In this document: one piece after another, positions 11,636 to 35,249 of the stretch
Layout: each line of letters opens with the position of its first letter
How positions within the stretch are numbered: position 1 is the stretch's first letter
Source of the DNA: Escherichia coli
GTDB lineage: Bacteria > Pseudomonadota > Gammaproteobacteria > Enterobacterales > Enterobacteriaceae
Reading direction: 5' to 3' (one strand)
Assembly (NCBI RefSeq): GCF_030013595.1
Contig: NZ_CP122768.1
Length of the DNA: 64,000 nt
Translations under genes and position numbers: made by a program
The notes under the pieces: model-generated
Told to the model about the DNA's origin: nothing
Databases searched by the model: none
What the model saw: the letters and a program-made list of their open reading frames with translations, nothing else

Positions 11636-11650
11636 TTGACGACTCCTGTC

Positions 11651-13556: not shown

Positions 13557-13570
13557 TTGATTTATATCAA
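13557..13570. promoter_or_regulatory. FNR-consensus palindrome TTGAT-N4-ATCAA in the cydA upstream region
   Basis: perfect match to the FNR half-site palindrome about 340 bp upstream of the cydA start; cydAB is known to be FNR/ArcA regulated. Confidence 0.55.
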
Positions 13571-14969: not shown

Positions 14970-15049
14970 TTTTTATATATTCCCTGTGGCAAATATTGCT
15001 AAACAATGCCCGGGGATTAATTTTTATTACTCACGGAAAGATTTAAATA

Positions 15050-16469: not shown

Positions 16470-17857
16470 TGCAAATCGTCTCTGTCGATATTGGATCGAC
16501 GTGGACCAAAGCAGCCCTCTTCGCCCGGGAGGGGGACGCGTTAACGTTGGTTAACCACGTACTGACCCCAACCACCACCCATCATCTGGCGAAGGGGTTT
16601 TTCTCCAGCCTGAACCTGGTGTTAAACGTAGATAATGCCCTCCCCCTGTTTAACAGCGGTGAGGTTACATTGAAGTATTCCTCCTCTGCCAAAGGTGGGC
16701 TGGCGGTTGCCGCAATGGGATTGGTGCCTTCTATCACCCTGGAAACCGCGAAAGTAACCGCTCACTCTGCGGGGGCTAAAATTGCGCAATATTACTCCTA
16801 CAAGCTGAACCGCCGTGATATCCAGGCACTGGAAGAAACGCAGCCCGATATTCTCTTGTTCACCGGCGGCACCGACGGCGGAGAAGAAAGCTACGGCCTG
16901 AATAACGCCCGTGTGCTGGCAGAATCCAAACTCGACTGCGCCATTATTTATGCCGGAAACCGGGATATTCAGGACGAAGTGCAGGAGATCCTAGGGCATA
17001 AAGACCTGACCATCGTCGACAACGTTCTGCCCGATCTTGACCATCCGAACCCTTTAGCCGCACGCCAGGCTATCTGCGACATATTCCTTAAACGCATCGT
17101 TAAAGGGAAAGGGCTGGATGTCGTTGTTGATAAAACAGGCGAAGAACCAATGCCGACACCATGGACGGTCTTTGAACTGGTTAAGGCAATCAGTAACGTC
17201 GATCACAGCTGGAAAGAGTTCATGCTGATCGACATGGGCGGCGCAACCACCGATGTCTATTCCGCCTGTGCCAACACGCTCTCGCCCGACACCGTTTTAC
17301 ACGGCGTACCGGAACCCTTCGTGAAACGGACGGTGGAAGGCGATCTGGGAATGCGCGTCTCGGCAATGGTGGTTGGTGAAAGTGCGAAAGAGTTAGTCAA
17401 TGTGAATTTTGCTCAGCAACCCGCACAGCTGGACGCTTTTTATCATTACCTCCGTCATCTAGTCGCTCATCCCGACTACTTACCCGCGAATGCAGAAGAA
17501 AAATATTTCGATACCGTCCTGGCCGGACTGTGTGTGGGTTATGCCACCGAAAGACATGCGGGCACCAAAAAAGAGGTCTGCACCTGCGTCGGCAATGTCG
17601 ATTTACAGATGGGACGTGACCTGACAACCGTGCGTAAAGTCGTCGGATCCGGCGGATGGCTCTCGCGTGCCAGTCAGTTCGATATGCATCACTGGTTGAA
17701 ATACCGCGAGTTAAACGACGACGGTAAACGCATTCTCTTACCGACCGAATTTGAATATTACCGCGATTCCCGGGGGCTATTACCACTGCTGGCAAACGTC
17801 GCCAGAGTCGATCCTCTGGCCGCCGCGCGCACCAGTATTCAATGCTTAACCCTATAA
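16469..17857 (+). CDS. glmL: glutamate mutase-associated protein L (MutL/GlmL, putative reactivase)
   Basis: 462-aa ORF between the S and E subunit genes, as in clostridial glutamate mutase operons. Confidence 0.85.
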   Translation: MQIVSVDIGSTWTKAALFAREGDALTLVNHVLTPTTTHHLAKGFFSSLNLVLNVDNALPLFNSGEVTLKYSSSAKGGLAVAAMGLVPSITLETAKVTAHSAGAKIAQYYSYKLNRRDIQALEETQPDILLFTGGTDGGEESYGLNNARVLAESKLDCAIIYAGNRDIQDEVQEILGHKDLTIVDNVLPDLDHPNPLAARQAICDIFLKRIVKGKGLDVVVDKTGEEPMPTPWTVFELVKAISNVDHSWKEFMLIDMGGATTDVYSACANTLSPDTVLHGVPEPFVKRTVEGDLGMRVSAMVVGESAKELVNVNFAQQPAQLDAFYHYLRHLVAHPDYLPANAEEKYFDTVLAGLCVGYATERHAGTKKEVCTCVGNVDLQMGRDLTTVRKVVGSGGWLSRASQFDMHHWLKYRELNDDGKRILLPTEFEYYRDSRGLLPLLANVARVDPLAAARTSIQCLTL

Positions 17858-17875
17858 CAATTAAGGCTGCAATCA

Positions 17876-19321
17876 ATGGAACTTCGAAATAAGAAATTAA
17901 CCCATGACGAATTCATGACCGAGCGGCAACAGGTACTGAAAACCTGGGAAACCGGCAAGGATGTTGAAAACTTTGAAGATGGCGTTAAATACCAACAAAC
18001 CATTCCTGAGCATAAACGCTTCTCTCTTGCGCTGTTGAAAGCAGACAAGGAAGGTAAAACCCTTAGCCAACCGCGCGCAGGTGTGGCGCTGATGGACGAA
18101 CACATCGAACTACTGAAAACACTACAAGAAGAGTGCGATCTGCTGCCGAGCACTATCGATGCATATACCCGTCTGAATCGGTACGAAGAAGCGGCTGTAG
18201 GGATTAAAAAATCCATCGAAGCCGGAACCTCTAAACTGAACGGTTTGCCGGTAGTTAACCATGGCGTCGCAGCTTGCCGTCGCCTCACCGAAACCCTGCA
18301 AAAACCGCTACAGATCCGCCACGGCACGCCAGATGCGCGTCTGCTGGCTGAAATCTCAATGGCCAGCGGCTTTACCAGTTATGAAGGCGGTGGCATTTCC
18401 TACAACATTCCGTATGCCAAACGCGTAACGCTGGAAAAATCGATCCGCGACTGGCAGTACTGCGACCGTTTAATGGGGATGTATGAAGAACACGGGATCC
18501 GCATCAACCGCGAACCGTTTGGCCCACTAACGGGTACGCTGATCCCGCCGTTTATCTCGCACTCTATCGCGATAATCGAAGGCTTGCTGGCGCTGGAACA
18601 GGGTGTGAAATCTATCACCGTTGGTTATGGACAGGTCGGCAGCCTGACGCAGGATGTTGCGGCGATCCAGTCTCTGCGTGAACTTGCACACGAATATTTT
18701 CAGAGCTATGGCTATACCGACTATGAATTAAGTACCGTGTTTCACCAGTGGATGGGCGGCTTTCCGGAAGACGAATCGAAAGCGTTCGCTATTATCTCCT
18801 GGGGCGCAGCCGTCGCGGGGATGTCTGGTGCCACCAAAGTCATCACCAAAAGTCCGCACGAAGCCTGGGGCATCCCGACTGCCGCTGCCAACATTCAGGG
18901 GCTGAAAGCCTCCCGCCAGATGCTCAACATGGTCAACGAGCAGAAATTCCCGCCGTGCCCTGCGGTTGAACTGGAAATTGAACTGATTAAGAGCGAGGTT
19001 CGCGCGGTACTGAATAAAGTGTTCGAACTGGGTAATGGTGATATTGCGCGCGGTACGGTGCTGGCATTTGAAGCGGGCGTACTGGATGTGCCGTTTGCGC
19101 CAGCCGCCTGCAACGCGGGCAAAATTCTTCCGGTCCGTGACAACACCGGCGCGATACGCGTACTGGAAGCCGGAGCCGTTCCATTGCCAAAAGATATTCT
19201 CGACCTCCACCACGATTACGTTGCTGAACGCGCACGCTTTGAAGGACGCCAACCGACATTCCAGATGGTTGTAGATGACATCAATGCTGTATCCCACAGT
19301 AAATTAATAGGAAGACCATAA
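17876..19321 (+). CDS. glmE: glutamate mutase epsilon (E) subunit
   Basis: 481 aa with strong collinear similarity to clostridial GlmE (e.g. PRAGVALxDEHIELL, REPFGPLTGTL, VFHQWMGGFP). Confidence 0.92.
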   Translation: MELRNKKLTHDEFMTERQQVLKTWETGKDVENFEDGVKYQQTIPEHKRFSLALLKADKEGKTLSQPRAGVALMDEHIELLKTLQEECDLLPSTIDAYTRLNRYEEAAVGIKKSIEAGTSKLNGLPVVNHGVAACRRLTETLQKPLQIRHGTPDARLLAEISMASGFTSYEGGGISYNIPYAKRVTLEKSIRDWQYCDRLMGMYEEHGIRINREPFGPLTGTLIPPFISHSIAIIEGLLALEQGVKSITVGYGQVGSLTQDVAAIQSLRELAHEYFQSYGYTDYELSTVFHQWMGGFPEDESKAFAIISWGAAVAGMSGATKVITKSPHEAWGIPTAAANIQGLKASRQMLNMVNEQKFPPCPAVELEIELIKSEVRAVLNKVFELGNGDIARGTVLAFEAGVLDVPFAPAACNAGKILPVRDNTGAIRVLEAGAVPLPKDILDLHHDYVAERARFEGRQPTFQMVVDDINAVSHSKLIGRP

Positions 19322-20562
19322 TGAAAATAAAACAGGCTCTGTTCACCGCTGGCTACTCCTCATTCTATTTCGATGACCAGCAGGCGATAAAAAACGGAGC
19401 GGGTCATGACGGCTTTTTTTATACCGGGGAGCCAGTAACACAGGGGTTTAACGCCGTACGTCAGGCCGGGGAGTGCGTATCGGTACAGTTGATTCTGGAA
19501 AACGGCGCGGTCGCCGTAGGTGACTGTGCTGCCGTACAGTATTCCGGGGCAGGTGGTCGCGATCCACTGTTCCTCGCAGAGCACTTTATTCCGTTCCTCA
19601 ACGACCATATCAAGCCATTACTGGTAGGCCGCGATGTGGATGCTTTCCTGCCGAATGCCCGTTTCTTCGACAAATTGCGTATTGACGGCAACTTGCTACA
19701 TACCGCCGTGCGCTACGGATTATCACAGGCGCTGCTTGATGCTACCGCGCTGGCAACCGGCCGTCTGAAAACTGAAGTAGTTTGCGATGAATGGCAGTTG
19801 CCACGCGTGGCGGAATCCATTCCATTATTTGGTCAGAGCGGTGACGATCGATATATCGCCGTCGATAAGATGATCCTTAAGGGCATCGACGTGCTGCCCC
19901 ATGCACTGATTAATAACGTCGAAGAGAAACTAGGCTTTAAAGGTGAAAAACTGCGCGAATATGTCCGCTGGCTGTCGGATCGTATTCTGAGCAAGCGCAC
20001 CAGCGCACGCTACCACCCTACCCTGCACATCGATGTATACGGCACTATCGGTCTGATCTTCGATATGGATCCGCTTCGCTGTGCGCAATACATCGCCAGC
20101 CTGGAAAAAGAAGCGCAAGGCCTGCCGCTCTACATTGAAGGGCCGGTCGATGCCGGTAACAAGCCCGATCAAATTCGCCTGCTGACCGCGATTACCAAAG
20201 AGCTGACGCGCCTCGGTTCCGGCGTGAAAATTGTGGCCGATGAATGGTGTAACACCTACCAGGATATTGTTGATTTTACTGATGCCGCCAGTTGCCACAT
20301 GGTGCAAATCAAAACCCCGGATCTGGGCAGTATTCACAACATCGTCGATGCGGTTCTTTACTGCAACAGCCACAGCATGGAAGCGTACCAGGGCGGCACC
20401 TGCAATGAAACTGATGTCAGTGCCTGCACCTGTGTCCACGTCGCCCTTGCCGCTCGCCCTATGCGTATGCTGGTAAAGCCAGGGATGGGCTTTGACGAAG
20501 GCCTCGATATCGTCTTCAACGAAATGAATCGTACTATCGCGCTGTTGCAGGCTAAGGATTAA
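19321..20562 (+). CDS. mal: 3-methylaspartate ammonia-lyase (beta-methylaspartase)
   Basis: 413 aa; enolase-superfamily MAL motifs (AVQYSGAGGRDPLF, HMVQIKTPDLG, KPGMG); overlaps glmE stop (TAATG). Confidence 0.93.
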   Translation: MKIKQALFTAGYSSFYFDDQQAIKNGAGHDGFFYTGEPVTQGFNAVRQAGECVSVQLILENGAVAVGDCAAVQYSGAGGRDPLFLAEHFIPFLNDHIKPLLVGRDVDAFLPNARFFDKLRIDGNLLHTAVRYGLSQALLDATALATGRLKTEVVCDEWQLPRVAESIPLFGQSGDDRYIAVDKMILKGIDVLPHALINNVEEKLGFKGEKLREYVRWLSDRILSKRTSARYHPTLHIDVYGTIGLIFDMDPLRCAQYIASLEKEAQGLPLYIEGPVDAGNKPDQIRLLTAITKELTRLGSGVKIVADEWCNTYQDIVDFTDAASCHMVQIKTPDLGSIHNIVDAVLYCNSHSMEAYQGGTCNETDVSACTCVHVALAARPMRMLVKPGMGFDEGLDIVFNEMNRTIALLQAKD

Positions 20563-20565
20563 CAA

Positions 20566-21936
20566 ATGGCTCGTTCTTTTAAAGTCTTATCGCCAACGGC
20601 AATCCTCGGGTATGGATTCCCGGAAGAGAGCTTCCGTAAAGCGATGGCAGAATCGCCCGATCTGATCGCCGTTGATGCAGGCTCTTCCGATCCTGGCCCC
20701 CACTACCTCGGGGCGGGCAAACCGTTTACCGATCGCGCAGGGGTCAAGCGCGATCTGCGCTATATGATCACCGCAGGCGTGCAAAATAATATACCGGTGG
20801 TGATCGGAACGGCTGGCGGTTCTGGTGCCGCACCACACCTGGAGTGGTGCCGAGAAATAATTCATGAGATTGCCCGGGAAGAGCACCTCTCGTTCTCGAT
20901 GGCGTTGATCCCGGCAGACGTTGACAAAGCCATCGTCCACCAGGCGCTGGATAACGGCAAAATCACGGCGCTGGATTTTGTCCCGCCGTTAACCCACGAC
21001 GCGATTGACGAAAGTACGTATATCGTCGCGCAAATGGGCATCGAACCCTTCCAGCAGGCGCTGAAAGAAGGCGCGCAAGTGGTGCTGGGCGGGCGCGCTT
21101 ACGACCCGGCCTGCTTTGCTGCGCTACCGATCATGCAAGGCTTTGATGAAGGTCTGGCGCTGCATTGTGGGAAAATCCTTGAATGCGCGGCAATCGCCGC
21201 AACGCCCGGCTCAGGCTCTGACTGGGCGATGGGCATCATTGATGACAACGGCTTTACGCTGAAGACATTTAATCCGAAGCGTAAATTTACCGAAACGTCA
21301 GCGGCTGCACACACACTGTATGAGAAATCCGATCCCTACTTCCTGCCAGGACCTGGCGGCGTGTTGAACCTGAAAGACTGCACATTTAAAGCGGTCAATG
21401 ACGGCGAAGTGTACGTCAGCGGTTCTAAGCATGAAGAAACGCCGTATGCCCTGAAACTGGAAGGTGCGCGACGAGTGGGCTTCCGCTGTCTGACCATCGC
21501 AGGAACGCGCGACCCGATCATGATCGCCGGGATCGATAAAATCATCGATGAAGTCAAAACCAGCGTTTCGCGTAACCTGTCGCTCGACGATGACAGCATT
21601 CACATCAATTTCCACCTGTACGGCAAAAACGGGGTGATGGGCGACCATGAACCGATGCAAACTGCCGGGCATGAGCTGGGGATTGTCCTTGATGTAGTTG
21701 CACCGACCCAGGAAATTGCCAATAGCGTTTGCTCGCTGGTGCGCTCTACCATGCTGCACTACGGCTATGAAAACCGCATCGCTACCGCAGGCAATCTGGC
21801 GTTCCCGTTCTCCCCTTCTGATATCCAGGGCGGGCCGGTATACGAATTTTCCATATATCACCTGATTGAAGCCAACGACGCTCTGCGTTTTGATTTCCAT
21901 ATTGAACAGGTGACGCCAGAAGGAGTTCAGGCATGA
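20566..21936 (+). CDS. DUF1446 (AtuA-like) family protein, function unknown
   Basis: 456-aa soluble ORF; family assignment from remembered N-terminal pattern, not verified. Confidence 0.6.
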   Translation: MARSFKVLSPTAILGYGFPEESFRKAMAESPDLIAVDAGSSDPGPHYLGAGKPFTDRAGVKRDLRYMITAGVQNNIPVVIGTAGGSGAAPHLEWCREIIHEIAREEHLSFSMALIPADVDKAIVHQALDNGKITALDFVPPLTHDAIDESTYIVAQMGIEPFQQALKEGAQVVLGGRAYDPACFAALPIMQGFDEGLALHCGKILECAAIAATPGSGSDWAMGIIDDNGFTLKTFNPKRKFTETSAAAHTLYEKSDPYFLPGPGGVLNLKDCTFKAVNDGEVYVSGSKHEETPYALKLEGARRVGFRCLTIAGTRDPIMIAGIDKIIDEVKTSVSRNLSLDDDSIHINFHLYGKNGVMGDHEPMQTAGHELGIVLDVVAPTQEIANSVCSLVRSTMLHYGYENRIATAGNLAFPFSPSDIQGGPVYEFSIYHLIEANDALRFDFHIEQVTPEGVQA

Positions 21937-22250
21937 AACAGTCAATTGTCTCACTGGCGCAAGTCATTCGTTCGAAAAATGCCGGACCTTACGAACTGGT
22001 TTTAGATATTTTATTTAAAACCAAAGAAAACTATGAGCGTGTCAAATCATCAGGGCAATTAACCCCAGAACTGATCGCGCGCTTATATCATGTTGAACCT
22101 GACTTTATTCATCGTATTGTCTGGTTTGATCCTTCTAACGCAGTAAAAATCGTCATGCCACGAGATATTATCTCCGGGAATGTAGGTGACAATGATGTCT
22201 ATGGTGCACAGCAACATGCACCTTTATTAAATATGAGTTTCGATTTGTAA
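21933..22250 (+). CDS. DUF4387-like small protein, function unknown
   Basis: 105-aa ORF translationally coupled (ATGA overlap) to the DUF1446-like gene; remembered SKNAGP and YGAQQH motifs. Confidence 0.55.
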   Translation: MKQSIVSLAQVIRSKNAGPYELVLDILFKTKENYERVKSSGQLTPELIARLYHVEPDFIHRIVWFDPSNAVKIVMPRDIISGNVGDNDVYGAQQHAPLLNMSFDL

Positions 22251-22333
22251 AAATCCGAATACTTTTAGCCAACTGACATCCCGTCACTTATTGCAGTTCA
22301 ACACTTCAGCTATTTGTAAGGTTGTAATAGCAG

Positions 22334-22375
22334 GTAGATGCCTGAATCTCTATTCAGGCATCTACTTCTCCTGAT
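22334..22375 (+). terminator. intrinsic terminator or attenuator hairpin (14-bp perfect stem GTAGATGCCTGAAT / ATTCAGGCATCTAC)
   Basis: perfect inverted repeat with CTCT loop followed by a T-rich tract, between the DUF4387-like gene and the transporter. Confidence 0.6.
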
Positions 22376-22410
22376 TCTGATTTATCGCCGCGCACCTGAT
22401 GGAGGAAAAA

Positions 22411-23691
22411 ATGAAGAAAATAAGTTTAACCACGATGATTCTTTTGGCGCTGGTACTTGGAATGATTATCGGCGTAGTGCTCAATAACACTGCTTCACCG
22501 GAAACCGCAAAACTCTATGCGCAAGAAATATCGATATTCACGACGATTTTCTTACGACTGATAAAAATGATTATCGCTCCGTTAGTGGTCTCTACCCTGG
22601 TGGTAGGTATAGCTAAAATGGGCGATGCCAAAGCCCTTGGTCGTATTTTTTCTAAAACACTCTTTTTATTTATTTGCGCCTCATTGCTGTCAATTGCCTT
22701 AGGCTTGATAACAGTAAATTTCTTCATGCCAGGCACAGGAATTAATTTTGTTGCACACGGAGCCGAAACCACCGGAGTGGTCGCGTCAGAACCCTTTACG
22801 CTAAAAGTATTTATTTCGCATGCTTTCCCCACCAGCATTGTCGATGCCATGGCGCACAATGAAATTTTGCAAATCGTGGTGTTCTCAATTTTCCTCGGCT
22901 GTAGCCTGACGGCGATTGGCGAGAAAGCCAGCGCCATCGTTCACGCCTTAGATTCGCTGGCACATGCCATGTTAAAGCTCACTGGCTACGTCATGCTCTT
23001 CGCTCCCCTGACCGTATTCGCTGCTATTTCAGCATTGATTGCTGAACGAGGACTGGCAGTTATGGTGAGCGCCGGGATCTTTATGGGTGAATTTTATTTC
23101 ACCATGTTATTACTTTGGGTGCTGCTTATCGGTCTGGCCATCGTTTATGTTGGCCCCTGCATCAGACGCCTGACCCGCGCCCTTTCGGAACCCGCCCTGC
23201 TGGCATTTACCACATCCAGTTCTGAAGCGGCTTTTCCAGGAACGCTTGAAAAACTGGAGCAATTTGGCGTTTCCCCCAAAATTGCCAGCTTTGTCTTACC
23301 CATTGGCTACTCATTTAATCTCGTTGGATCAATGGCCTACTGCTCCTTCGCCACAGTTTTCATCGCCCAGGCCTGCAATATCCATTTATCCATCGGTGAG
23401 CAAATCACCATGCTGTTGATCCTGATGTTGACCTCGAAAGGAATGGCTGGCGTACCACGCGCCTCAATGGTGGTTATCGCCGCCACGCTCAACCAGTTCA
23501 ATATTCCGGAAGCGGGGCTGATCTTGCTGATGGGCGTTGATCCGTTCCTTGATATGGGGCGTTCCGCGACAAACGTCATGAGCAACGCAATGGGCGCTGC
23601 GATGGTGAGTCGGTGGGAAGGCGAACATTTCGGCGAGGGCTGTCGGGGTAAAGCATTAAAACCCAATGAATCGAACGTTGCTCTGCCCTGA
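22411..23691 (+). CDS. dicarboxylate/amino acid:cation symporter (DAACS family, GltP/DctA-like)
   Basis: about 426-aa polytopic membrane ORF; start chosen at MKKISL after a GGAGG Shine-Dalgarno; substrate unknown. Confidence 0.8.
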   Translation: MKKISLTTMILLALVLGMIIGVVLNNTASPETAKLYAQEISIFTTIFLRLIKMIIAPLVVSTLVVGIAKMGDAKALGRIFSKTLFLFICASLLSIALGLITVNFFMPGTGINFVAHGAETTGVVASEPFTLKVFISHAFPTSIVDAMAHNEILQIVVFSIFLGCSLTAIGEKASAIVHALDSLAHAMLKLTGYVMLFAPLTVFAAISALIAERGLAVMVSAGIFMGEFYFTMLLLWVLLIGLAIVYVGPCIRRLTRALSEPALLAFTTSSSEAAFPGTLEKLEQFGVSPKIASFVLPIGYSFNLVGSMAYCSFATVFIAQACNIHLSIGEQITMLLILMLTSKGMAGVPRASMVVIAATLNQFNIPEAGLILLMGVDPFLDMGRSATNVMSNAMGAAMVSRWEGEHFGEGCRGKALKPNESNVALP

Positions 23692-23798
23692 GGGGGATCT
23701 TAAGCAATCAGAAGCCAATGACTACGCATTTTTATAAGCCGGATCATGAAGTTAGACGGCAATTAAGTAACACTAACGTTTAAGGTGAAAAGTGAAAT

Positions 23799-25451
23799 AT
23801 GTCAAAACCATTTATCTGGCAAGAACCGTTTCTACAAAATAAAGACGGTACAGAATATACATTAATTAGCGATCAGCATATTACAGTAACGGAATTAGAC
23901 GGCGAAGAAGTGATAAAAATCGCTCCTGAAGCATTAACGCTGCTTGCCCGGCAGGCATTTTATGAAGCCTCTTTTTTCTTACGTTCCGCTCATTTGCAAC
24001 AGGTCGCCAGCATTCTTAACGATCCGCAGGCCAGTAGTAATGATAAATACGTTGCGTTGCAGTTATTACGTAATGCTGAAGTCTCAGCAAAAGGGGTATT
24101 ACCCAACTGTCAGGATACCGGCACCGCAACTATTGTTGCCAGTAAAGGGCAACAGATATGGACGGGAGGTAACGACGCTGAAGCCTTAAGCAAAGGCATT
24201 TACAGTACTTTCCAGGAAAATAATCTGCGCTTTTCACAAAATGCGCCGCTGGATATGTATACCGAAGTCAATACGCAAACCAATCTCCCGGCGCAGATTG
24301 ATATCAGCGCTGTCGCTGGTAATGAGTACCATTTTCTCTGTGTTAATAAAGGGGGCGGCTCCGCCAATAAAGCCGCACTTTATCAGGAAACCAAATCCTT
24401 ATTGCAACCAGAAAAACTGACCGCATTTTTAATCGAAAAAATGAAATCGCTGGGCACCGCTGCCTGCCCGCCTTACCACATCGCCTTTGTCGTCGGAGGG
24501 CTTTCAGCCGATCAAACCTTAAAAGTTGCCAAGCTGGCCTCAACGAAATATTACGACAATTTGCCCACCAGCGGAAACGAGCAAGGACAAGCATTCCGTG
24601 ATATTGAGCTGGAAAAAGTGTTGCTCGAGGCCAGTCAGCAATTTGGTATTGGTGCGCAATTTGGAGGTAAATATTTCGCTCATGATATTCGCGTCATTCG
24701 TCTGCCGCGTCACGGTGGCTCCTGCCCGATAGCTATGGCGCTCTCCTGTTCTGCCGATCGCAATATCAAAGCAAAAATTAACAAGCACGGTATCTGGCTG
24801 GAAAAACTCGAACACAATCCGGGGCAATATATTCCAGCCTCACTGCGGGAAGAAAATCACGCGCAACATGTACAGCTGGATCTAAACCGTCCGTTGCGTG
24901 ACGTGATGCAGGATCTCGCCAGATTACCGGTAGGTACCCGCGTGTCGTTAAGTGGTCCCATCGTAGTGGCGCGCGATATCGCCCACGCCAAAATAAAAGC
25001 GCGGCTGGATAGCGGCGAACCGATGCCGGATTACCTGAAGCATCATATTGTCTATTACGCTGGCCCGGCGAAAACACCGGAGAACATGGCCTGCGGTTCA
25101 CTAGGTCCAACCACGGGCGGTCGAATGGACGGTTATGTCGATACCTTCCAGGCTGCTGGCGGCAGTCTGGTAATGTTATCGAAAGGTAACCGCAGCCAGC
25201 AGGTCACCGATGCCTGTCACAAACATGGCGGCTTCAATCTGGGAAGTATTGGCGGTGCAGCTGCGTTACTGGCGCAAGAATATGTCAAAAGTCTGCGTTG
25301 CCTGGAATACCCGGAGCTGGGTATGGAAGCGGTGTGGATGATGGAAGTGGAAAATCTGCCCGCATTCATCCTGGTAGATGATAAAGGCAATAATTTCTTT
25401 AGTCAGTTTGAGCAGCAACACCGCTGCGCCAGTTGCCCTGCGGGACATTAA
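23799..25451 (+). CDS. fumD: class I (Fe-S) fumarate hydratase paralogue, mesaconase/fumarase FumD-type
   Basis: 550 aa, FumA/FumB-like; clustered with glutamate mutase and mal as described for FumD of E. coli O157:H7. Confidence 0.85.
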
Positions 25452-25460
25452 GGAAAATGA

Positions 25461-26063
25461 ATGGAAGCGCGAATTTCAACTGAACGGCATGTGCAGCGCC
25501 AGCAGAAATTGAAGGAACAGGTCGATACGCGCATCGCGGCGGCGATAGAGAAAAAAGGGATTTTGATTGTTTTCACCGGCAATGGCAAAGGGAAATCCAC
25601 TGCCGCGTTTGGTACTGTGACGCGCGCGGTGGGTCATGGCAAAACGGTGGGGGTTGCGCAGTACATCAAGGGGCAATGGGACAACGGCGAATACAACCTT
25701 CTCCAGCCGCTGGGGGTTGAGTTTCATATTATGGGAACCGGTTTTACCTGGGAGACACAGAACCGGCAAGCGGATATCGACGCGGCGAAAGAGGTCTGGT
25801 CGGAAAGCAAACGGATGCTGGCTGACAAGCGTTACGACTTAGTGGTGCTTGATGAGCTGACCTATATGCTGGCTTACCATTATCTGGATACCGAAGAAGT
25901 GATCGCTTCTCTGCAAAACCGCCCGGCACAACAAAGTGTCATTGTCACCGGACGCGGTTGCCACAGTCAGATATTAAAAATGGCGGATACGGTCAGCGAA
26001 ATCCGCCCCGTCAAACATGCTTTTGATAACGGCATTCAGGCCCAGCCGGGTATCGACTGGTAA
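25461..26063 (+). CDS. cob(I)alamin adenosyltransferase (BtuR/CobA paralogue)
   Basis: 200 aa with P-loop GNGKGKSTAAFG and collinear similarity to BtuR; would supply adenosylcobalamin to glutamate mutase. Confidence 0.88.
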   Translation: MEARISTERHVQRQQKLKEQVDTRIAAAIEKKGILIVFTGNGKGKSTAAFGTVTRAVGHGKTVGVAQYIKGQWDNGEYNLLQPLGVEFHIMGTGFTWETQNRQADIDAAKEVWSESKRMLADKRYDLVVLDELTYMLAYHYLDTEEVIASLQNRPAQQSVIVTGRGCHSQILKMADTVSEIRPVKHAFDNGIQAQPGIDW

Positions 26064-26066
26064 TAA

Positions 26067-26098
26067 CTGCGCCTGGCATCCCGCCAGGCGCAGGTTTT
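26067..26098. terminator. bidirectional terminator hairpin between convergent genes
   Basis: 11-bp inverted repeat CTGCGCCTGGC / GCCAGGCGCAG followed by GTTTT. Confidence 0.6.
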
Positions 26099-27002
26099 AC
26101 ATCTCCTGCGGTACAACCGATTTCGCCAGCAACCATTCACGAAATTGCTGCAAGTGCGGTGAGTCAGACTTCTCTTCCTGCCACGTCATAATAAAACGAT
26201 TACCGGTACGAATAGGCACATCACAGGGGATCACCATATCGCCACTATCCAAATCATGTTGAATAGCGAACCGTGGTAACAGCGCCACGCCGAGATTCGA
26301 GCGCACGGCGGCAATCAGCATTGAAAGCAAATCGAAACGTGGTCCGTTGTTGACCAGCGGACTGCTAACGCCAGATAAGGCAAACCACTCTTCCCAGCCA
26401 GTAATACGGGTACTTTGATGCAGAAGTGGTAACTCTGTAAGCAGTTCTGCCACTGACAGTTTTTGATCGGACATTGCAAGCAAACTGCCGCTGCATACCG
26501 GCAAAATCTCCTCATAAAAGAGATATTCTACTTCCGCCCAGGGCGCGCAAAAATTTTCGCGCATAATGACAGCATCGTACTCCCGATTAAGAAAATCGCC
26601 GTTATTAGCTAAAGAGTGAATATTAACAATAATATCGGGATGTAACTTTGTGAATTCATGTAAATTTGGGATTAACCAGTGAGTACTAAACGTAGGATTA
26701 ACGGCAAGTTCAATAACCTGAACCGTAGGCTGCCAGGTCATAATGGTATTGGTATCGCGTTCCAGCTTATTTAATGTTTCTTTTACTATCCCCAGGTAAT
26801 ACTTCCCTGCATCATTAAGAAAAATGCGTTTTTTAGAGTGTGAAAATAACGGAGTATGTAAAAATTCCTCCAGCGCACTTACTTGTCTGAATACAGCACT
26901 TTGGGTTAACGCTAACTCCTCTGCCGCTCTGGTATAGCTTTCATGACGTGCGACGACCTCAAAAGTCACCAGCTGCTCCGTTTTAGGTATTTTTCCTCGC
27001 AT
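26097..27002 (-). CDS. LysR-family transcriptional regulator
   Basis: N-terminal HTH (TFEVVARHESYTRAAEELALTQSAVFRQVSALEE) and LysR substrate-binding domain; start chosen at MRGKIP; divergent from the RtcB-like gene. Confidence 0.85.
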   Translation of the reverse strand: MRGKIPKTEQLVTFEVVARHESYTRAAEELALTQSAVFRQVSALEEFLHTPLFSHSKKRIFLNDAGKYYLGIVKETLNKLERDTNTIMTWQPTVQVIELAVNPTFSTHWLIPNLHEFTKLHPDIIVNIHSLANNGDFLNREYDAVIMRENFCAPWAEVEYLFYEEILPVCSGSLLAMSDQKLSVAELLTELPLLHQSTRITGWEEWFALSGVSSPLVNNGPRFDLLSMLIAAVRSNLGVALLPRFAIQHDLDSGDMVIPCDVPIRTGNRFIMTWQEEKSDSPHLQQFREWLLAKSVVPQEM

Positions 27003-27591
27003 AATGCCGTCCGTGAAAAAATAACAATTCAAAAATTATTTTATAAAAAACAGTAGCACTAATGAATATCATAATTCAAATAAACAAACCAGTCAGCTAT
27101 ATGTCTAACCAGGAAAATAAAGTGACAATAATCCTAAAACAGGAATTTCACCTCAGTTATCCGCATGCAATACTTTAAAGCTATTATTGCAAGAATATTA
27201 TTCATATACATGAATATACTCTAAATAAGTCAAGTTGCAGGAAGGGAACAAATAATGAATTTCCAGAAGCTTACATAAGTAAGTGACCTGGGTGAGCGAA
27301 CATCGATGCAGCACATGCAACTTGAATTATGACAAGTATACAATGATAAATTTATATACCCTATGTTATATATTATCTATGTCCGGTTAAATTGAATGAG
27401 TCATGGCCTTAAAAGACTTCACAAAAGATAATTCCTCTTTAACAATAAGCCAGATTTACCACTTGTAAAACTTGCTATCGCCACATACACTACGCGCGTT
27501 TTCTTTCCCTTTTGCTGGCTGCTGACCGGAAAGACAAAATTACCCTCGCAATACAGGGGGTTGTTTAACGTCTATATTTCAGGACAGCGTT

Positions 27592-28989
27592 ATGCATCAT
27601 CTTTCAAGGCTTGATAAAGCCTTTCTGCGCAAAGGGATCCAACTTTCCCGCGCCAACAATATTGTTTCATTATCTCGTCCATCAGGTGCCAGTGCCCGCG
27701 TACTGCTGCCGGACGAACTGCCGCTGGAAGAAAAAGCAGTAACACAACTGCTTGATTTTGCAGAAGTGAAGCTACCAGACCACCCAGGTTATGTGCGCCA
27801 GACGTGCGCGACGCCAGATTTTCATCCCGGCAATGGAGTCCCCGTTGGCGCGGTGGTGGCCTCAACGCCGGATTTAGTCATTCCCGCCGCCATCGGCACC
27901 GATATTTCTTGTGGCATGCGGCTGCTGACGACCGGATTAACACTTGAGCAAGCCGAAGCGCATAAAGACGTCATCGCTCAGCGGTTAACGCAAGTGCTAC
28001 TGCAAAATGAGCGCGATGTTCCGTTATCCGCACAGGCGTTCACCGCGCTTTTTGATGGCGGACCGGCAGATTGCGTGTCGACCTTGCCATCAGCAGGTCT
28101 CTGGACACGCACGAATATCCCCCGAATGGTACAAGAGATTGACCGCTGCATTGGGCTTAACGAGCATAACAGTCATTCGCGTTATGCCCCACCCGCCCTG
28201 CTGGCAACGGACCGCGCATTACTCCGCGATCCTTGTCTGGGTACGCCGGGTTCAGGTAATCATTTTATTGAACTTCAGGTCGTTGATAGCGTGGTTGATC
28301 GCCATGTAGCCTGGCAACAAGGGCTGAAAACAGGCGATATTGTGGTGATGATCCACAGTGGATCGCGAGATGTTGGCTTTTACGTCGGAAGACGCTGGAT
28401 GGATCGCGCCCGTGCTGAATGGCCCACCGGACATAAACATCCACAAAGCGGGTTATATGGTCTGGCAGGCGGACTGGCGGAGGAATATCTACAAGCGATA
28501 GGAATGGCGGCGCGTTACGCGTGGTTAAATCGCGTCACAATTGCCGAAATGGTGCGCGTATGTCTCGCCAATCTCTTTCATCAGGACAATTCGCATCTGG
28601 TGGTGGATGTGCCGCATAACATCATCCTTCGCGAGCATGAAATGAATATTCATCGCAAAGGTGCAACACCGGCACGAGTGGGCGATCTGGCATTAATCCC
28701 CGGTTCAATGGGCGATTATTCGTGGCTTGCAGTCGGTTGCGGCAACCCGGAGTGGCTGTGGTCATGCAGTCACGGAGCAGGACGCAGCCAGCGTCGACAG
28801 GCCATGCGCTCAAGCGCGACTGAAGAGTCAACGCTGCCGTGGCAATGCGTCACATTGCGTGAAGAACGACGTCTTGAAGAAGCGCCAGCGGCTTATAAAG
28901 ATATTGGTCCGGTTATCGAAGCCCAACAAGAAGCCGGATTAATTCAGCCAGCGGTCAGATTTCGACCGTGGTTAACGTTTAAGGCATAA
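27592..28989 (+). CDS. RtcB-family RNA 3'-phosphate ligase paralogue with N-terminal extension
   Basis: 465 aa; RtcB motifs PDFHPGNG, IPAAIGTDISCGM, GSGNHFIEL, MIHSGSRDVG, HN, IPGSMG, CSHGAGR, AYKDI; no rtcA/rtcR nearby. Confidence 0.85.
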   Translation: MHHLSRLDKAFLRKGIQLSRANNIVSLSRPSGASARVLLPDELPLEEKAVTQLLDFAEVKLPDHPGYVRQTCATPDFHPGNGVPVGAVVASTPDLVIPAAIGTDISCGMRLLTTGLTLEQAEAHKDVIAQRLTQVLLQNERDVPLSAQAFTALFDGGPADCVSTLPSAGLWTRTNIPRMVQEIDRCIGLNEHNSHSRYAPPALLATDRALLRDPCLGTPGSGNHFIELQVVDSVVDRHVAWQQGLKTGDIVVMIHSGSRDVGFYVGRRWMDRARAEWPTGHKHPQSGLYGLAGGLAEEYLQAIGMAARYAWLNRVTIAEMVRVCLANLFHQDNSHLVVDVPHNIILREHEMNIHRKGATPARVGDLALIPGSMGDYSWLAVGCGNPEWLWSCSHGAGRSQRRQAMRSSATEESTLPWQCVTLREERRLEEAPAAYKDIGPVIEAQQEAGLIQPAVRFRPWLTFKA

Positions 28990-29086
28990 AAAAGGCCATC
29001 ATACGATGGCCAACCATGTCGAAACCGACAGCCCTTCGCCATTCCTGTAGAGGGAAGCGGCGAGGGCTATTTCTTATTACAGATAT
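28990..29086 (-). ncRNA. sdhX: SdhX (RybD)-type 3'UTR-derived sRNA region with intrinsic terminator
   Basis: position immediately 3' of sucD with terminator GGCCATCGTATGATGGCC-TTTT on the minus strand; assignment by position and memory of SdhX, exact ends uncertain. Confidence 0.5.
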
Positions 29087-29956
29087 TTATTTCAGAACAG
29101 TTTTCAGTGCTTCACCGATATCCGCCAGGCTGCGAACGGTTTTCACGCCTGCGGCTTCCAGAGCAGCGAATTTCTCATCCGCAGTCCCTTTCCCACCGGC
29201 AATGATCGCACCCGCGTGGCCCATACGTTTGCCTTTCGGCGCAGTCACACCAGCGATGTAACCCACAACTGGCTTGGTAACATGCTCTTTGATGTACGCA
29301 GCCGCTTCTTCTTCAGCGCTACCGCCGATCTCACCGATCATCACGATCGCTTCGGTCTGCGGATCTTTTTCGAACATTTCGAGGATGTCGATAAAGTTAG
29401 AGCCAGGGATCGGGTCACCGCCGATACCAACACAGGTCGACTGACCGAAACCGTAATCCGTGGTCTGTTTCACCGCTTCATAGGTCAGTGTACCGGAACG
29501 GGAAACGATACCCACTTTACCCGGTTTGTGAATGTGACCAGGCTGGATACCGATTTTGCATTCACCCGGAGTGATAACGCCTGGGCAGTTCGGGCCGATC
29601 ATGCGAACGCCCGCTTCATCCAGTTTCACCTTCACGGTCAGCATATCCAGCGTCGGGATGCCTTCAGTGATGGTGATAATCAGTTTGATGCCTGCATCAA
29701 TAGCTTCCAGAATGGAGTCTTTGCAGAACGGTGCTGGTACGTAGATAACAGAAGCGGTAGCGCCAGTAGCAGCAACAGCTTCACGCACGGTATTGAACAC
29801 CGGCAGGCCGAGGTGGGTAGTACCGCCTTTACCTGGGGTTACGCCGCCAACCATTTTGGTGCCGTATGCAATGGCCTGTTCAGAGTGGAAAGTCCCCTGG
29901 CTACCGGTAAAGCCCTGGCAGATAACCTTGGTGTTTTTATCAATTAAAATGGACAT
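29087..29956 (-). CDS. sucD: succinyl-CoA synthetase alpha subunit
   Basis: 289 aa, conserved SucD. Confidence 0.97.
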
Positions 29957-31122
29957 TATTTCCCCTCCACTGCGGCAACAACCTGCTGAGCTGCATCCGT
30001 CAGACCTTTTGCTGCAATAATATTCAGGCCGCTGTCAGCCAGTTTCTTCGCGCCGAGTTCGGCGTTGTTACCTTCCAGACGTACCACGACCGGTACGTTA
30101 ACACCCACTTCCGCTACCGCGCCGATGATACCGTCAGCGATCAGGTCGCAACGAACGATACCGCCGAAGATGTTAACCAGAACGGCTTTCACTTTGTCGT
30201 CAGAGAGGATGATTTTGAACGCTTCGGTTACACGTTCTTTGGTTGCGCCGCCGCCAACGTCCAGGAAGTTAGCTGGTTCGCCGCCGTGCAGTTTAACGAT
30301 GTCCATCGTACCCATCGCCAGACCTGCGCCGTTAACCATACAACCGATGTTACCGTCCAGCGCAACGTAGTTCAGTTCCCACTGTGCAGCCTGTGCTTCA
30401 CGCGGATCTTCCTGCGACTGGTCACGCATTTCGCGCAGATCAGGCTGGCGGAACAGTGCGTTGCCGTCAGCGCCCAGTTTGCCGTCGAGGCAAATCAGAT
30501 CGCCCTGTTTGGTGATGACCAGCGGGTTGATTTCGATCAGCGCCAGGTCGCGCTCCAGGAAAATGGTCGCCAGGCCCATGAAGATTTTGGTGAACTGCTG
30601 AACCAGTTTACCTTCCAGACCCAGTTTAAACGCCAGCTCGCGTCCCTGATACGGCATCGGGCCAGTCAGCGGATCAAGCGCAACTTTGTGGATCAGGTGC
30701 GGAGTTTCTTCCGCCACTTTTTCGATTTCCACGCCGCCTTCGGTGGAGGCCATAAAGACCACACGACGGGAACTACGGTCAACAACGGCACCGAGATACA
30801 GCTCTTTAGCGATATCGGTCGCTGCTTCAACCAGAATCTGGTTAACCGGTTGGCCATTGGCATCTGTTTGATACGTTACCAGACGCTTGCCCAGCCAGTT
30901 TTCTGCAAAAGCACGGATGTCTTCTTTGCTGTTTACCACTTTCACACCGCCCGCTTTACCGCGGCCACCAGCGTGAACCTGACATTTCACTACCCACGGA
31001 CCGGCACCGATTTTTGAAGCGGCTTCTTCTGCTTCGCGCGGAGTAGTACAGGCATAACCCACCGGTGCTGGTAAGCCATAGCGGGCAAAAAGTTGTTTTG
31101 CCTGATATTCATGTAAGTTCAT
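29956..31122 (-). CDS. sucC: succinyl-CoA synthetase beta subunit
   Basis: 388 aa, ATP-grasp SucC. Confidence 0.97.
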
Positions 31123-31215
31123 GTGTTCTGTCCATCCTTCAGTAATCGTTATCTTTTAAACCGTAGACCGACACCCTATCCACGTCGGTCTACAGTGCAG
31201 GTGAAGCTTAAACTA

Positions 31216-32433
31216 CTACACGTCCAGCAGCAGACGAGTCGGATCTTCCAGCAACTCTTTGATCGTTACCAGGAAGCCCACGGATTCGCGACCATCGATC
31301 AGACGGTGATCGTAGGACAGCGCCAGGTACATCATCGGCAAGATCTCAACCTGACCATTCACCGCCATCGGACGATCTTTGATAGCGTGCATACCCAGAA
31401 TTGCGCTCTGCGGCGGGTTGATGATCGGCGTAGACATCAGGGAACCGAACACACCACCATTGGTGATGGTGAAGTTACCACCGGTCAGATCTTCAACGGT
31501 CAGCTTGCCGTCACGGCCTTTAACAGCCAGCTCTTTGATTTTCTTCTCGATGTCTGCCATGCCGAGGGTATCGACATCACGCAGAACCGGCGTCACCAGG
31601 CCGCGCGGCGTAGAAACCGCCATGCTGACGTCGAAATAGTTGTGGTAAACCACATCATCGCCGTCGATAGACGCGTTCACTTCCGGGTAACGTTTCAGGG
31701 CTTCAACCACCGCTTTCACGTAGAAGGACATAAAGCCCAGACGGATGCCGTGGCGTTTTTCAAACGCTTCACCGTACTGCTTACGCAGATCCATAATCGG
31801 CTTCATGTTGACTTCGTTGAACGTGGTCAGCATGGCGGTGGAGTTTTTCGCTTCCAGCAGACGCTCAGCCACACGCTTACGCAGGCGAGTCATCGGCACA
31901 CGTTTTTCGCTACGTGCAGCCAGAGCCGGTTGCGCCGCCGGAGCAGCCGCTGCCGGAGCAGACTCTTTCGCCGGGGCTTTCGCCAGATGTTTTTCCACAT
32001 CTTCACGAGTCAGACGACCACCCACACCGGTGCCTTTAATGGCGCTGGCGTCGAGGTTGTGTTCAGCCAGCAGGCGACGGATCGCCGGGCTTAACGCATC
32101 GTTGTTTTGCTCTTCCAGAGACGCCTGCTGGCGTTGCGCCGGAGTGGACGCTTTCTCTTCAGATTTGGCGCTGGTTTCTTTACCCGCGCTGTTGCCTTCA
32201 CGCAGGCGACCAAGGATCTGACGAGACGTTACCGTTGTACCTTCATCTTCCAGAACCGCATCCAGAATGCCGTCTGCTGATGCCGGTACTTCCAGTACCA
32301 CTTTGTCAGTTTCGATTTCTACCAGCACTTCATCACGTACGACTGCGTCGCCGGGTTTTTTATGCCAGGTTGCGACGGTGGCATCGGCTACGGATTCAGG
32401 CAGGTCAGGGACCAGAATATCTACGCTACTCAT
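31216..32433 (-). CDS. sucB: 2-oxoglutarate dehydrogenase E2 (dihydrolipoyl succinyltransferase)
   Basis: 405 aa, lipoyl domain, Ala/Pro linker, catalytic domain with DHRxxDG. Confidence 0.97.
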
Positions 32434-32447
32434 TGTGTATCCTTTAT

Positions 32448-35249
32448 TTATTCGACGTTCAGCGCGTCATTAACCAGATCTTGTTGCTGTTTCTGGTGAA
32501 CGGACATATACCCTACCGCCGGAGAGGCGGAGGCCGGGCGGCCTGCATAACGCAGAGAAGCCCCAAACGGAATCACTTCACGGAAATGATGCTGGCTGCA
32601 GTACCATGCGCCCTGGTTGAGCGGCTCTTCCTGGCACCAGACAAAATCCTTGACGTGAGCAAACTGCTGCAACACTTCCTGCATCGCTTTATGCGGGAAC
32701 GGGTAGAGTTGCTCGATACGCACAATGGCGACATCGTGTTGATTGTTCTTACGACGTTGTTCCAGCAGGTCGTAATAAACCTTACCAGAACACATCACTA
32801 CGCGCTTCACGCCCTTCGGATCAAGCTCGTCGATTTCACCGATGGCTGGCAGGAAGGTGCCGTTCGCCAGTTCTTCGAGGCTGGATACCGCCAGCGGATG
32901 ACGCAGCAGGGATTTCGGCGACATCACGACCAGTGGACGACGCATCCCGCGCAACGCCTGACGACGCAGCATGTGGTAAACCTGTGCCGGGGTAGACGGG
33001 ACGCACACCTGCATGTTTTGCTCAGCGCAAAGTTGCAGATAACGTTCCAGACGCGCGGAGGAGTGCTCCGGTCCCTGCCCTTCGTAACCGTGCGGCAGCA
33101 ACATCACCAGGCCACACATCCGGCCCCATTTCTGCTCGCCAGAGGAGATGAACTGGTCGATAACCACCTGAGCACCGTTAGCGAAGTCACCGAACTGTGC
33201 TTCCCAGATAGTCAGAGTGCGTGGTTCTGCGGTGGCATAACCGTATTCAAACGCCAGCACTGCTTCTTCAGACAGTACGGAGTCCCAGACACGGAACGCG
33301 CCCTGGCCGTTATGGATGTGTTGCAGCGGCGTGTAAGTGGAACCGTTAGACTGGTTGTGGATCACCGCGTGGCGGTGGAAGAAGGTACCGCGACCGGAGT
33401 CTTCACCCGACAGGCGAACCGGAATGCCTTCGTCAACCAGCGTGGCGTAAGCGAGGTTTTCCGCGCCGCCCCAGTCGAACAGTTTCTCACCGGCAGCCAT
33501 CGCCTGGCGATCGCCATAAATCTTGGCAACGCGAGACTGCATTTCAACTGCTTCCGGCACCGTGCTGATGCGTTTAGCCAGTTCCTGCAGGCGCTTCATC
33601 TCAACTTTGTTCGGGTACTCTTCGTCCCATTCGTGGTTGAGGTACGGTGACCAGGTGAAAGAGTGCATGTTCATCGGACGCCACTCTGCTACCACGCAAT
33701 CGCCAGCATCCAGCGCATCGCGGTACAGGTTAACCATCTCGGTGGCATCTTCCAGCGTCGCGACTTTTTCTTGCTCCAGCTTGTCAGCGTAGATTTTGCG
33801 CGGCGTCGGATGTTTTTTGATTTTCTGATACATCAGCGGCTGGGTTGCGCTCGGCTCGTCGGCTTCGTTATGGCCATGACGGCGGTAGCACACCAGGTCG
33901 ATGAAGACATCACGTTTAAAGGTGTTACGGAAATCGAGCGCCAGACGGGTCACAAAGGCAACGGCTTCAGGATCATCCGCGTTAACGTGGAAAATCGGTG
34001 CCTGAACCATCTTACCGATATCAGTACAGTACGGCGTCGAACGGGCATCCAGCGGGTTAGAGGTGGTGAAGCCAACCTGGTTGTTGATAACGATACGTAC
34101 CGTACCGCCAACTTCATAGCCACGCGCTTTCGACATGTTCAGGGTTTCCTGAACCACGCCCTGCCCGGTCACTGCGGCGTCACCGTGGATGGTAATTGGC
34201 AGCACTTTGTTGCTGCTCGGCTCATCAAGTCTGTCCAGACGGGCACGAACAGAACCGATAACTACCGGGCTGACAATCTCAAGGTGAGACGGGTTAAACG
34301 CCAGCGCCAGGTGCACCAGGCCGCCATCGGTCTGGAAGTCAGACGAGAAGCCCATGTGGTATTTCACGTCGCCCGTGCCGAGGTGTTCTTTATGTTTACC
34401 GGCAAACTCGTCGAACAAGTCTTGCGGTTTTTTACCCAGCACGTTCACCAGCACGTTCAGACGACCACGGTGCGCCATCCCGAGAACCACTTCGCGGGTG
34501 CCGCTGTTGCCAGCGTGGCGGATCATCTCTTTAAGCATCGGGATTAACGCGTCACCGCCTTCCAGCGAGAAGCGTTTTGCGCCAGGGAATTTTGCGCCGA
34601 GGTAACGTTCAAGGCCTTCAGCGGCGGTCAGTTCGCTTAAGAAGCGTTTTTTCTCTTCGCTATTGAAAGTCGCGCGACCAGACTCGATACGCTGTTGGAT
34701 CCAGCGTTTTTCTTCGGTGCTGGTAATATGCATATACTCGGCACCAATCGGGCCGCAGTAGGTTTGCTTGAGGGCTTCCAGCAGCTCGCCGAGTTTCATG
34801 GTTTCTTTGCCGCTGGCAAATGAACCGACGTTGAAGGTCTCCTGGAAGTCTGCTTCGGTCAGATCGTGGAAAGACGGATCCAGATCGGCCACTTTATCTT
34901 GCTGCCACAGTCCCAGCGGATCGAGATTCGCATGCTGGTGACCACGGAAGCGGTATGCGTTAATGAGCTGCAGGACTTTAACCTGCTTCACATTGGTGTC
35001 AGGGTCGGAGATCGTTGAAGAGTAACGTGAAGCGTCTTTCGCCAGGCGGCGGAAATATTCACGCGTTTGAGAGTGGAATTGATCCGGTTTGACTCCCGTA
35101 CCAGGTAACTGCTGGAACGTCGAACGCCAGTTAGCGTCAACCGAGTCAGGATCGGTTAAGAAGTCTTCATAGAGCTGTTCTATCCAGCTCTGGTTTGCGC
35201 CAGAGAGGTAAGAAGAGTCCAACCAGGCTTTCAAAGCGCTGTTCTGCAT
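32448..35249 (-). CDS. sucA: 2-oxoglutarate dehydrogenase E1
   Basis: 933 aa. Confidence 0.97.

Follow-up and report, generated by a model that had tools for sequence, protein, structure and literature searches.

In the window (the whole 64-kb stretch of Escherichia coli DNA that was analysed), sucD lies on the minus strand, where it is preceded by sucC, sucB, sucA and sdhBADC. Its 3'UTR runs up to the end of a convergent gene of the RtcB family, encoded on the plus strand. The features of this short region, which include the sequence of a known small RNA, are listed in Table 1.

Table 1. Features at the facing 3' ends of the RtcB-family gene and sucD, with positions in the window
Feature	Position	Strand	Description or basis
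RtcB-family gene	27592..28989	+	intact, stand-alone, 465 aa; stop TAA 28987-28989
Seed-like sequence TTTCGACCGTGGTT	28960..28973	+	RtcB codons F-R-P-W-L; nearly copies the SdhX seed region
Breakpoint, RtcB module / conserved sdhX core	28984..28988	.	homology limits
SdhX (RybD), full length	28988..29086	-	sucD 3'UTR, 99 nt, from the base after the sucD stop to the last terminator U
U6 tract of the SdhX terminator	28993-28988	-	28988-28989 on the plus strand are two A's of the RtcB stop
Rho-independent terminator hairpin GGCCATCGTATGATGGCC / GGCCAUCGUAUGAUGGCC	29011-28994	-	terminator scan; 7 pairs (5 G-C), 4-nt loop
SdhX seed UUCGACAUGGU	29013..29023	-	exact match to the published seed (PMC6393394), directly before the terminator
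Single-stranded SdhX stretch UUCGACAUGGU	29023-29013	-	fold prediction
Small SdhX hairpin	29029-29018	-	fold prediction
SdhX 5' stem-loop	29068-29030	-	fold prediction
Complement of the SdhX 5' stem-loop, marginal terminator-like element	29030-29068, tail 29069-29079	+	own scan
sucD	29087-29956	-	last gene of sdhCDAB-sucABCD; stop codon 29089-29087

SdhX and the gene convergent with sucD

SdhX (RybD) is an Hfq-dependent sRNA processed from the 3'UTR of sdhCDAB-sucABCD, with its seed, UUCGACAUGGU, located just before the terminator stem-loop and a shortest form of 38 nt (Miyakoshi et al. 2019, PMC6393394). The first-pass annotation had recognised an SdhX-type terminator at this site, and the alignment with the K-12 sucD 3' region bears this out. 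The sequence, starting 14 nt inside sucD so that the stop codon is covered and extending through the U6 tract, is identical base for base to that of the K-12-derived strain J53 (100% over alignment columns 1-113), and the seed, the hairpin and the U-tract are all present. The features that identify SdhX were thus all found: a location immediately behind sucD, the seed, the terminator with its U-tract, which provides the Hfq-binding 3' end, and the homology to K-12. The segment 29025-28988 is exactly 38 nt long and would correspond to the published shortest form. The 99-nt RNA is predicted to fold with an energy of -42.1 kcal/mol (z = -5.0). The sdhX locus is conserved, with matches in 5425 of the 5426 complete E. 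coli genomes, and is therefore not a chance feature.

A cmscan of positions 27000-31000 against Rfam 15 at a permissive threshold gave no match at E <= 1. As a sequence identical to that of K-12 goes unmatched, Rfam apparently holds no usable SdhX model, and the assignment is therefore based on K-12 identity and the literature rather than on a covariance model. On this evidence, the minus strand at 28988-29086 is the known and already characterised SdhX/RybD in an ordinary context. The RNA itself is the same as in K-12 (position, 99-nt sequence, seed, hairpin and U6), and only the downstream neighbour differs, mngR there and an RtcB-family gene here. SdhX (RybD) is reportedly also the subject of work by De Mets et al. 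in 2019. RNase E processing, Hfq binding and repression of ackA, which are known for SdhX of K-12 and Salmonella (PMC6393394), would be expected to extend to the present strain. In one genome, FDAARGOS_944, the SdhX seed is interrupted by IS1, and 9 bp of the target, CCATGTCGA, are duplicated.

The product of the convergent gene matches Pfam PF01139 with an E value of 1e-94 and 318.6 bits (cut-off 27), residues 63-464 aligning to profile positions 7-425 of 426, and RtcB structures in the PDB match it with E values of 1e-40 to 1e-43. In a genome with 100% identity, PGAP labels the gene 'RtcB family protein'. Homologues with 57-63% identity are found in Betaproteobacteria, Gilliamella and Snodgrassella, and the C-terminal motif ...(R/K)(L/F)(R/K)PW.TFK(A/V/G)-stop is common to the distant homologues. 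Taken together, the near-complete profile alignment and this conserved motif indicate that the stop codon at the junction is the native end of the protein. The dN/dS of the gene against three close copies is 0.13-0.20, indicating that it is maintained by selection.

Two other RtcB contexts were considered and rejected for this gene. Its protein does not qualify as the PrfH-associated RtcB2, given that the TIGR03073 score of 167.6 is below the cut-off of 271.8 and that no prfH gene is adjacent. The RtcB2-PrfH module of E. coli ATCC 25922 (PMC9223846, PMC9304027) likewise contains an accessory RtcB paralogue present only in some strains, but it includes prfH, whereas the gene studied here stands alone without a conserved neighbour. 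It is flanked by a LysR gene and sucD, and no conserved partner gene of the paralogue was found in six distant loci. A sigma-54 promoter of the kind that serves rtcBA in K-12 was also sought, and no match was better than chance and none lay upstream of the gene. The ORF-free upstream region is AT-rich (30-36% GC) and contains only weak promoter-like matches (9/12). We regard the gene as an uncharacterised third RtcB-family paralogue, with a frequency of about 5% among complete E. coli genomes.

The junction and the variable region beyond it

The stop codon of the RtcB-like gene had been described as lying directly against the hairpin, and this can be refined: the A6 run that forms the complement of the SdhX U-tract begins with the two A's of its TAA. 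Since these bases lie inside A6, full-length SdhX and a complete RtcB mRNA would overlap by at least 2 nt. Homology to an RtcB copy adjacent to mngB stops at 28984, and identity to K-12 starts at 28988, partial matches extending as far back as 28980. Similarity to five other E. coli arrangements (the mngR, O157, B2, hut and mngB types) ends 0-4 nt past the U-tract.

A search of 5426 complete E. coli genomes revealed at least six configurations at the sucD-cydA locus. In the K-12 type, which accounts for roughly two thirds as estimated from evenly spaced rows of the survey, mngR-mngA-mngB occupies the locus, and mngR is convergent with its stop codon 4 nt from the A-tract. The direct junction between RtcB and SdhX occurs in 156 of the 5426 genomes. 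These include the arrangement of the present window, with a methylaspartate-pathway cluster, LysR and RtcB, and that of strain TL20 and a Citrobacter-labelled MAG, in which hutU and RtcB are followed by the same junction. The O157:H7 type resembles the present window with rtcB reduced to two fragments, corresponding to 28716-28772 and 28946-28989. In about 134 genomes, RtcB is instead convergent with mngB, followed by mngA, mngR and SdhX. Finally, in the ATCC 25922 / APEC O1 type, a co-directional TPR pseudogene lies beside SdhX.

These alignments indicate that the SdhX terminator is the invariant edge of a replaceable sucD-cydA region, so that the proposal of a boundary at this point stands. 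The term island in its classical sense, by contrast, does not: no tRNA was found in 11000-31000, the 13 genes annotated between cydA and sucD do not include an integrase, and the region is therefore not a classical island. Nor, judging from the survey, is RtcB always the edge gene, as the mngB-mngA-mngR genes intervene between it and SdhX in one of the configurations. The locus rather behaves, as far as its gene content indicates, as a mosaic of replaceable cassettes. We also considered whether the present junction could derive from the mngB-adjacent one by a simple deletion of mngB-mngA-mngR between TAAG microhomologies. Compared with the observed TTTAAGGCATAAAAAA, the sequence predicted by such an event, TTTAAGCACAAAAAA, has one indel and one substituted base, and the candidate was rejected. 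The dS of the RtcB-like gene is 0.12 to the Citrobacter-labelled copy, which has the same junction, and 0.25 to an Escherichia sp. copy located beside mngB, suggesting that both junction types are old.

The first-pass annotation had described the terminator as an island boundary shared with the RtcB-like gene. In K-12, however, mngR holds the same position, and the layout is thus not peculiar to RtcB and represents an ordinary convergent-gene junction. The K-12 junction likewise has a convergent stop codon directly against the A-tract, one hairpin between the genes and the same sdhX; the two differ in spacing, with 4 nt between the mngR stop and the tract in K-12 and a 2-nt overlap with it for RtcB.

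A second difference is that mngR of K-12 has no seed-like sequence at its 3' coding end, whereas RtcB has one, TTTCGACCGTGGTT, which would be able to form an outer helix around the hairpin. The pattern TTTCGAC-N1-2-TGGTT has only two matches in the 64-kb window, one at the RtcB end and the other in the SdhX seed region. According to fold prediction, read-through RNA allows pairing between the seed-like sequence and the anti-seed (29012-29024), and the resulting outer helix around the terminator hairpin gives -24.2 kcal/mol (z -4.6) for the plus strand and -27.4 kcal/mol (z -5.2) for the minus strand. That the repeat evolved as an anti-seed was rejected, considering that the same bases are present in an RtcB copy located away from SdhX and that the conserved F/L-R/K-P-W motif dictates nine of its 12 specified positions. 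The inverted repeat between 28960-28973 and 29012-24 is probably coincidental.

The proximity of the two genes may also be devoid of functional consequence, with the RtcB-like gene mostly silent and the junction a scar of cassette replacement beside an SdhX protected by selection. We rate the chances of this reading as a little short of even. The low GC content of the ORF-free region upstream of the gene, the loss or degradation of the gene in genomes of the O157:H7 type and the many alternative cassettes that end at the same nucleotide are all in line with it, as is an SdhX with 100% identity to K-12, showing no adaptation to its neighbour. On the other hand, purifying selection on the RtcB-like gene (the dN/dS given above) argues against it. 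Moreover, the gene stays next to SdhX whichever of two upstream cassettes (LysR/methylaspartate or hut) precedes it, and it is therefore presumably expressed at times.

The terminator hairpin on each strand

The SdhX terminator hairpin has a folding energy of -11.5 kcal/mol. Its stem is invariant across all the configurations compared, with variation in one loop base only, and strain TL20 has U7 instead of U6. The two strands differ in what follows the hairpin: UUUUUUAU forms the minus-strand tail, and AACCAUGU, without a U-tract, the plus-strand tail. The terminator score, an approximate value from our own implementation of a d'Aubenton-Carafa-type formula, was +28.6 for the minus (sdh-suc) strand and -53 for the plus (RtcB) strand, and the corresponding T-scores were 4.61 and 0.11. 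The consensus terminator scan called the site on the minus strand only, and it yielded no plus-strand terminator in 27000-30000.

A bidirectional intrinsic terminator provides a hairpin and a U-tract in the RNA of each strand, and this combination was not found here. Classical A-tract/hairpin/U-tract terminators have the U-tract on both strands, whereas in the present case it is on the sdh-suc strand only. Given the lack of a plus-strand U-tract, the hairpin is not a canonical bidirectional terminator and is predicted to act as an intrinsic terminator in the sdh-suc direction only. The suggestion that both convergent transcripts share it finds no support in these scores. The hairpin also starts just 4 nt past the RtcB stop codon. 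A terminating ribosome covers the bases just past the stop codon, and one positioned on the RtcB stop would cover the 5' arm of the hairpin, preventing its formation.

The last U of U6 is at 765148(+) in K-12, and Term-seq places an abundant 3' end there (Adams et al. 2021, supplementary file 1). This position corresponds to 28988 in the window, inside the RtcB stop codon. The SdhX-strand 3' end was represented by about 20,000-35,000 reads (Adams et al. 2021). In the supplements of the same study we found neither an mngR-sense 3' end nor an antisense-sucD entry, and the TERMITe supplements contain no mngR-sense 3'-end data either. The missing mngR-sense 3' ends in K-12 may simply reflect low expression of mngR.

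Hairpins may, nevertheless, end transcripts in other ways. Hairpin elements between convergent genes have been proposed to position head-on collisions of polymerases that end both transcripts, and the collision-type bidirectional terminators so described are reported to be unlike intrinsic terminators (Liu laboratory, 10.1101/2022.10.23.513370). Bidirectional terminators between convergent E. coli genes are attributed to Ju et al. 2019 in the same preprint (10.1101/2022.10.23.513370). Considering that collision terminators differ from intrinsic ones, the missing U-tract is compatible with the hairpin setting the RtcB 3' end, and with the first-pass suggestion that the two transcripts may collide at it. 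Like the bidirectional terminators of convergent E. coli genes, the present site has one hairpin element between stop codons, and this hairpin-encoding element lies between a convergent pair, RtcB on the plus strand and sucD on the minus strand. Collision-type terminators are, however, defined by overlapping 3' ends on both strands, whereas the K-12 data list one strand only.

It thus appears unlikely that the hairpin is a true shared terminator, whether intrinsic or operating by programmed head-on collisions; under this reading, that of the first-pass annotation, the two transcripts would overlap by only about 25-30 nt. The convergent genes with a single strong hairpin between them, the RtcB-like gene without a terminator of its own and the reported collision-driven termination at such hairpins in E. 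coli all speak for sharing. So do the overlapping 3' ends that K-12 Term-seq shows at one hairpin elsewhere, for example, at can/hpt (141973(-) and 142003(+)). Against it stand the absence of a U-tract on the plus side, with the strongly negative score, and the expected blockage of a hairpin so close to the stop codon by the terminating ribosome. Moreover, the identical sequence in K-12 shows the sdh-suc-strand 3' end only. Finally, highly expressed gene pairs are said to favour collision termination (10.1101/2022.10.23.513370), and nothing suggests strong RtcB expression.

How transcripts of the RtcB-like gene may end

The explanation that we consider best, and hold with reasonable confidence, combines a one-sided SdhX terminator and an ordinary convergent junction with RtcB transcripts that would end by Rho, by collision or at a cryptic element. 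Lacking a private terminator, these transcripts would run antisense into sdhX; with a hairpin that has no plus-strand U-tract and lies inside the ribosome footprint, they would have no other course. RtcB mRNA running past its stop codon would thus be antisense to SdhX if the gene is expressed, which agrees with the first-pass annotation and follows from the geometry of the locus. The overlap between the two transcripts is probably 25-90 nt.

Three routes to an end can be envisaged. In the first, Rho would act on the untranslated, C-rich antisense-sucD RNA. The plus strand at 29090-29290 contains 33% C vs 22% G, and this C-rich, G-poor composition would suit the loading of Rho onto RNA that is not translated. 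In the second, polymerases coming from the RtcB-like gene would meet head-on with the far commoner sdh-suc polymerases paused at the hairpin. In the third, transcription would stop at the marginal terminator-like element on the plus strand. Whichever the route, the RtcB 3' ends may afterwards be trimmed back to stable hairpins.

The sdh-suc operon is strongly transcribed, and interference between the convergent genes should therefore fall mainly on the RtcB-like gene, not on SdhX. The published K-12 data point in the same direction. At 765604(+), on the strand antisense to mngR, a region of Rho-dependent termination was reported, with a Rho score of 2.86 (p = 2.3e-5; Adams et al. 2021). It is located about 450 nt past the SdhX 3' end, indicating that some sdh-suc transcription passes the SdhX terminator into the convergent gene. 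The read-through evident in K-12 is thus from the sdh-suc side into the convergent gene and not the reverse, which had been the direction initially emphasised.

The marginal plus-strand element could also be given a larger role. In that case, RtcB transcripts would pass the SdhX hairpin and end intrinsically at 29030-29068 and its U-rich tail. The resulting anti-SdhX 3'UTR of about 90 nt would match the full length of SdhX with perfect complementarity and act on it in cis, as a sponge or as a substrate of RNase III, coupling RtcB (in K-12, mngR) to SdhX and the TCA-cycle operon. No other sizeable plus-strand hairpin located between the RtcB stop and sucD is followed by a U-rich tail; that of the element, A-UUUCUUAUU, stops about 8 nt short of the sucD stop codon, and the predicted folding energy is -23.4 kcal/mol. 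Counted from 29070, the tail has 6 U in 8 nt and the element scores +5.8, but this score is marginal, dropping to -20 once the A at 29069 is included in the tail, and the consensus scan did not call the site. Its sequence is invariant in all the convergent configurations, a conservation that SdhX itself explains fully. Furthermore, no K-12 3' end is recorded on the RtcB-sense strand, and the literature searched contained nothing linking mngR with SdhX or with antisense RNA. Intrinsic termination at this element, with the coupling that it would bring, thus seems improbable.

Still more doubtful is an extension of this idea in which sdhX is a two-way module that gives any convergent neighbour (RtcB-like or mngR) an anti-SdhX 3'UTR of about 90 nt ending at 29030-29079, the seed-like sequence in RtcB masking or unmasking the anti-seed; if true, the neighbour mRNA would be an SdhX sponge or RNase III substrate, and an RNA-repair ligase would be coupled inversely to the activity of the TCA-cycle operon.

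With the one-sided terminator and the ordinary convergent junction as the preferred reading, the importance of the locus is small: a characterised sRNA has been re-identified, and a mosaic accessory region has its fixed limit at the terminator of this RNA. Nevertheless, considering that a convergent stop codon abuts the one-sided SdhX terminator in most E. coli, the junction constitutes a natural test case for how convergent genes without a terminator of their own are ended. It may equally serve to examine whether cis-antisense RNA from accessory genes reaches 3'UTR-derived sRNAs.

Gene content between sucD and cydA

The sucD-cydA interval proved to be mosaic: at least six alternative gene contents were found, consisting of mngRAB, a methylaspartate/mesaconate-pathway cluster with a LysR gene, a hut cluster or a TPR pseudogene, alone or in combination. 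Neither a tRNA nor an integrase was detected in this interval. At its SdhX-proximal end, the RtcB gene recurs with two different upstream cassettes.

Of the 5426 complete E. coli genomes, roughly 290 carry this RtcB paralogue (window 27592-28989), a stand-alone gene for which no conserved neighbour was found. At the N terminus it extends ~60 aa beyond the Pfam domain. Its closest non-enteric relatives (57–63% identity) come from Betaproteobacteria and from the bee-gut genera Gilliamella and Snodgrassella. Assignments as an rtcBA-type RtcB or as the PrfH-associated RtcB2 were both rejected.

In O157:H7-type genomes, the gene is reduced to two fragments, equivalent to window 28716-28772 and 28946-28989, with about 450 nt of unrelated sequence 3' of the LysR gene; beside SdhX, the final 44 nt survive, including the seed-like sequence described below. 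The AT-rich stretch upstream of the RtcB module varies among configurations, since the shared module begins only at 27484. Within this stretch, we detected no Rfam match and no sigma-54 site, and the sigma-70-like matches were only weak.

Coordinates of the features in the window and in the compared loci
Feature	Position	Strand	Corresponding or compared region
Mosaic interval between cydA and sdhX	window about 13200-28987		loci L001-L004, L013, L015
ORF-free stretch (30-36% GC) between LysR gene and RtcB module	window 27033-27483
O157:H7 remnant region	L003 5495-6000		window 27021-28945
Seed-like sequence TTTCGACCGTGGTT, codons F-R-P-W-L of RtcB	window 28960-28973	+
SdhX seed region TTTCGACATGGTT	window 29012-29024		RtcB coding end
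RtcB-mngB intergenic region	L013 (E. coli 2012C-4502) 9038-9181; L006 3187-3329
IS1 insertion inside SdhX seed	L014 (E. coli FDAARGOS_944, NZ_CP065613.1) about 1735-2500		window 29013-29021
SdhX 3' end / Rho termination region in K-12	K-12 765148 / 765604		window 28988 / about 28530

Sequence likenesses around the SdhX terminator

The RtcB coding end carries a near-copy, in the same sense, of the SdhX seed region, and within the 64-kb window the pattern TTTCGAC-N1-2-TGGTT matches at these two sites only. On a read-through transcript from either strand, the two sites are predicted to pair and to enclose the terminator hairpin in an outer helix, with a folding energy of -24 to -27 kcal/mol versus -11.5 for the hairpin alone. 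The likeness is probably a coincidence, given that the same bases are present in the mngB-adjacent RtcB copy and that most of them are fixed by the RtcB protein motif.

In loci where RtcB and mngB face each other, the region between them contains the hairpin CTCAGGCCATCCGAAGATGGCCTGAG, whose core stem, GGCCATC/GATGGCC, is the 7-bp stem of the SdhX terminator, although the loops differ. The shared stem is possibly due to chance.

Disruption of sdhX and read-through of its terminator

In FDAARGOS_944, the IS1 copy is flanked by a 9-bp target-site duplication, CCATGTCGA, and cuts the sdh-suc operon off from the SdhX seed and terminator, so that this reference strain carries a naturally disrupted sdhX.

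According to the supplements of Adams et al. (2021), part of sdh-suc transcription in K-12 passes the SdhX terminator, and Rho ends this read-through about 450 nt inside the convergent gene. The counterpart of this RNA in the window strain would cover the 3' third of the RtcB-like gene in antisense orientation.
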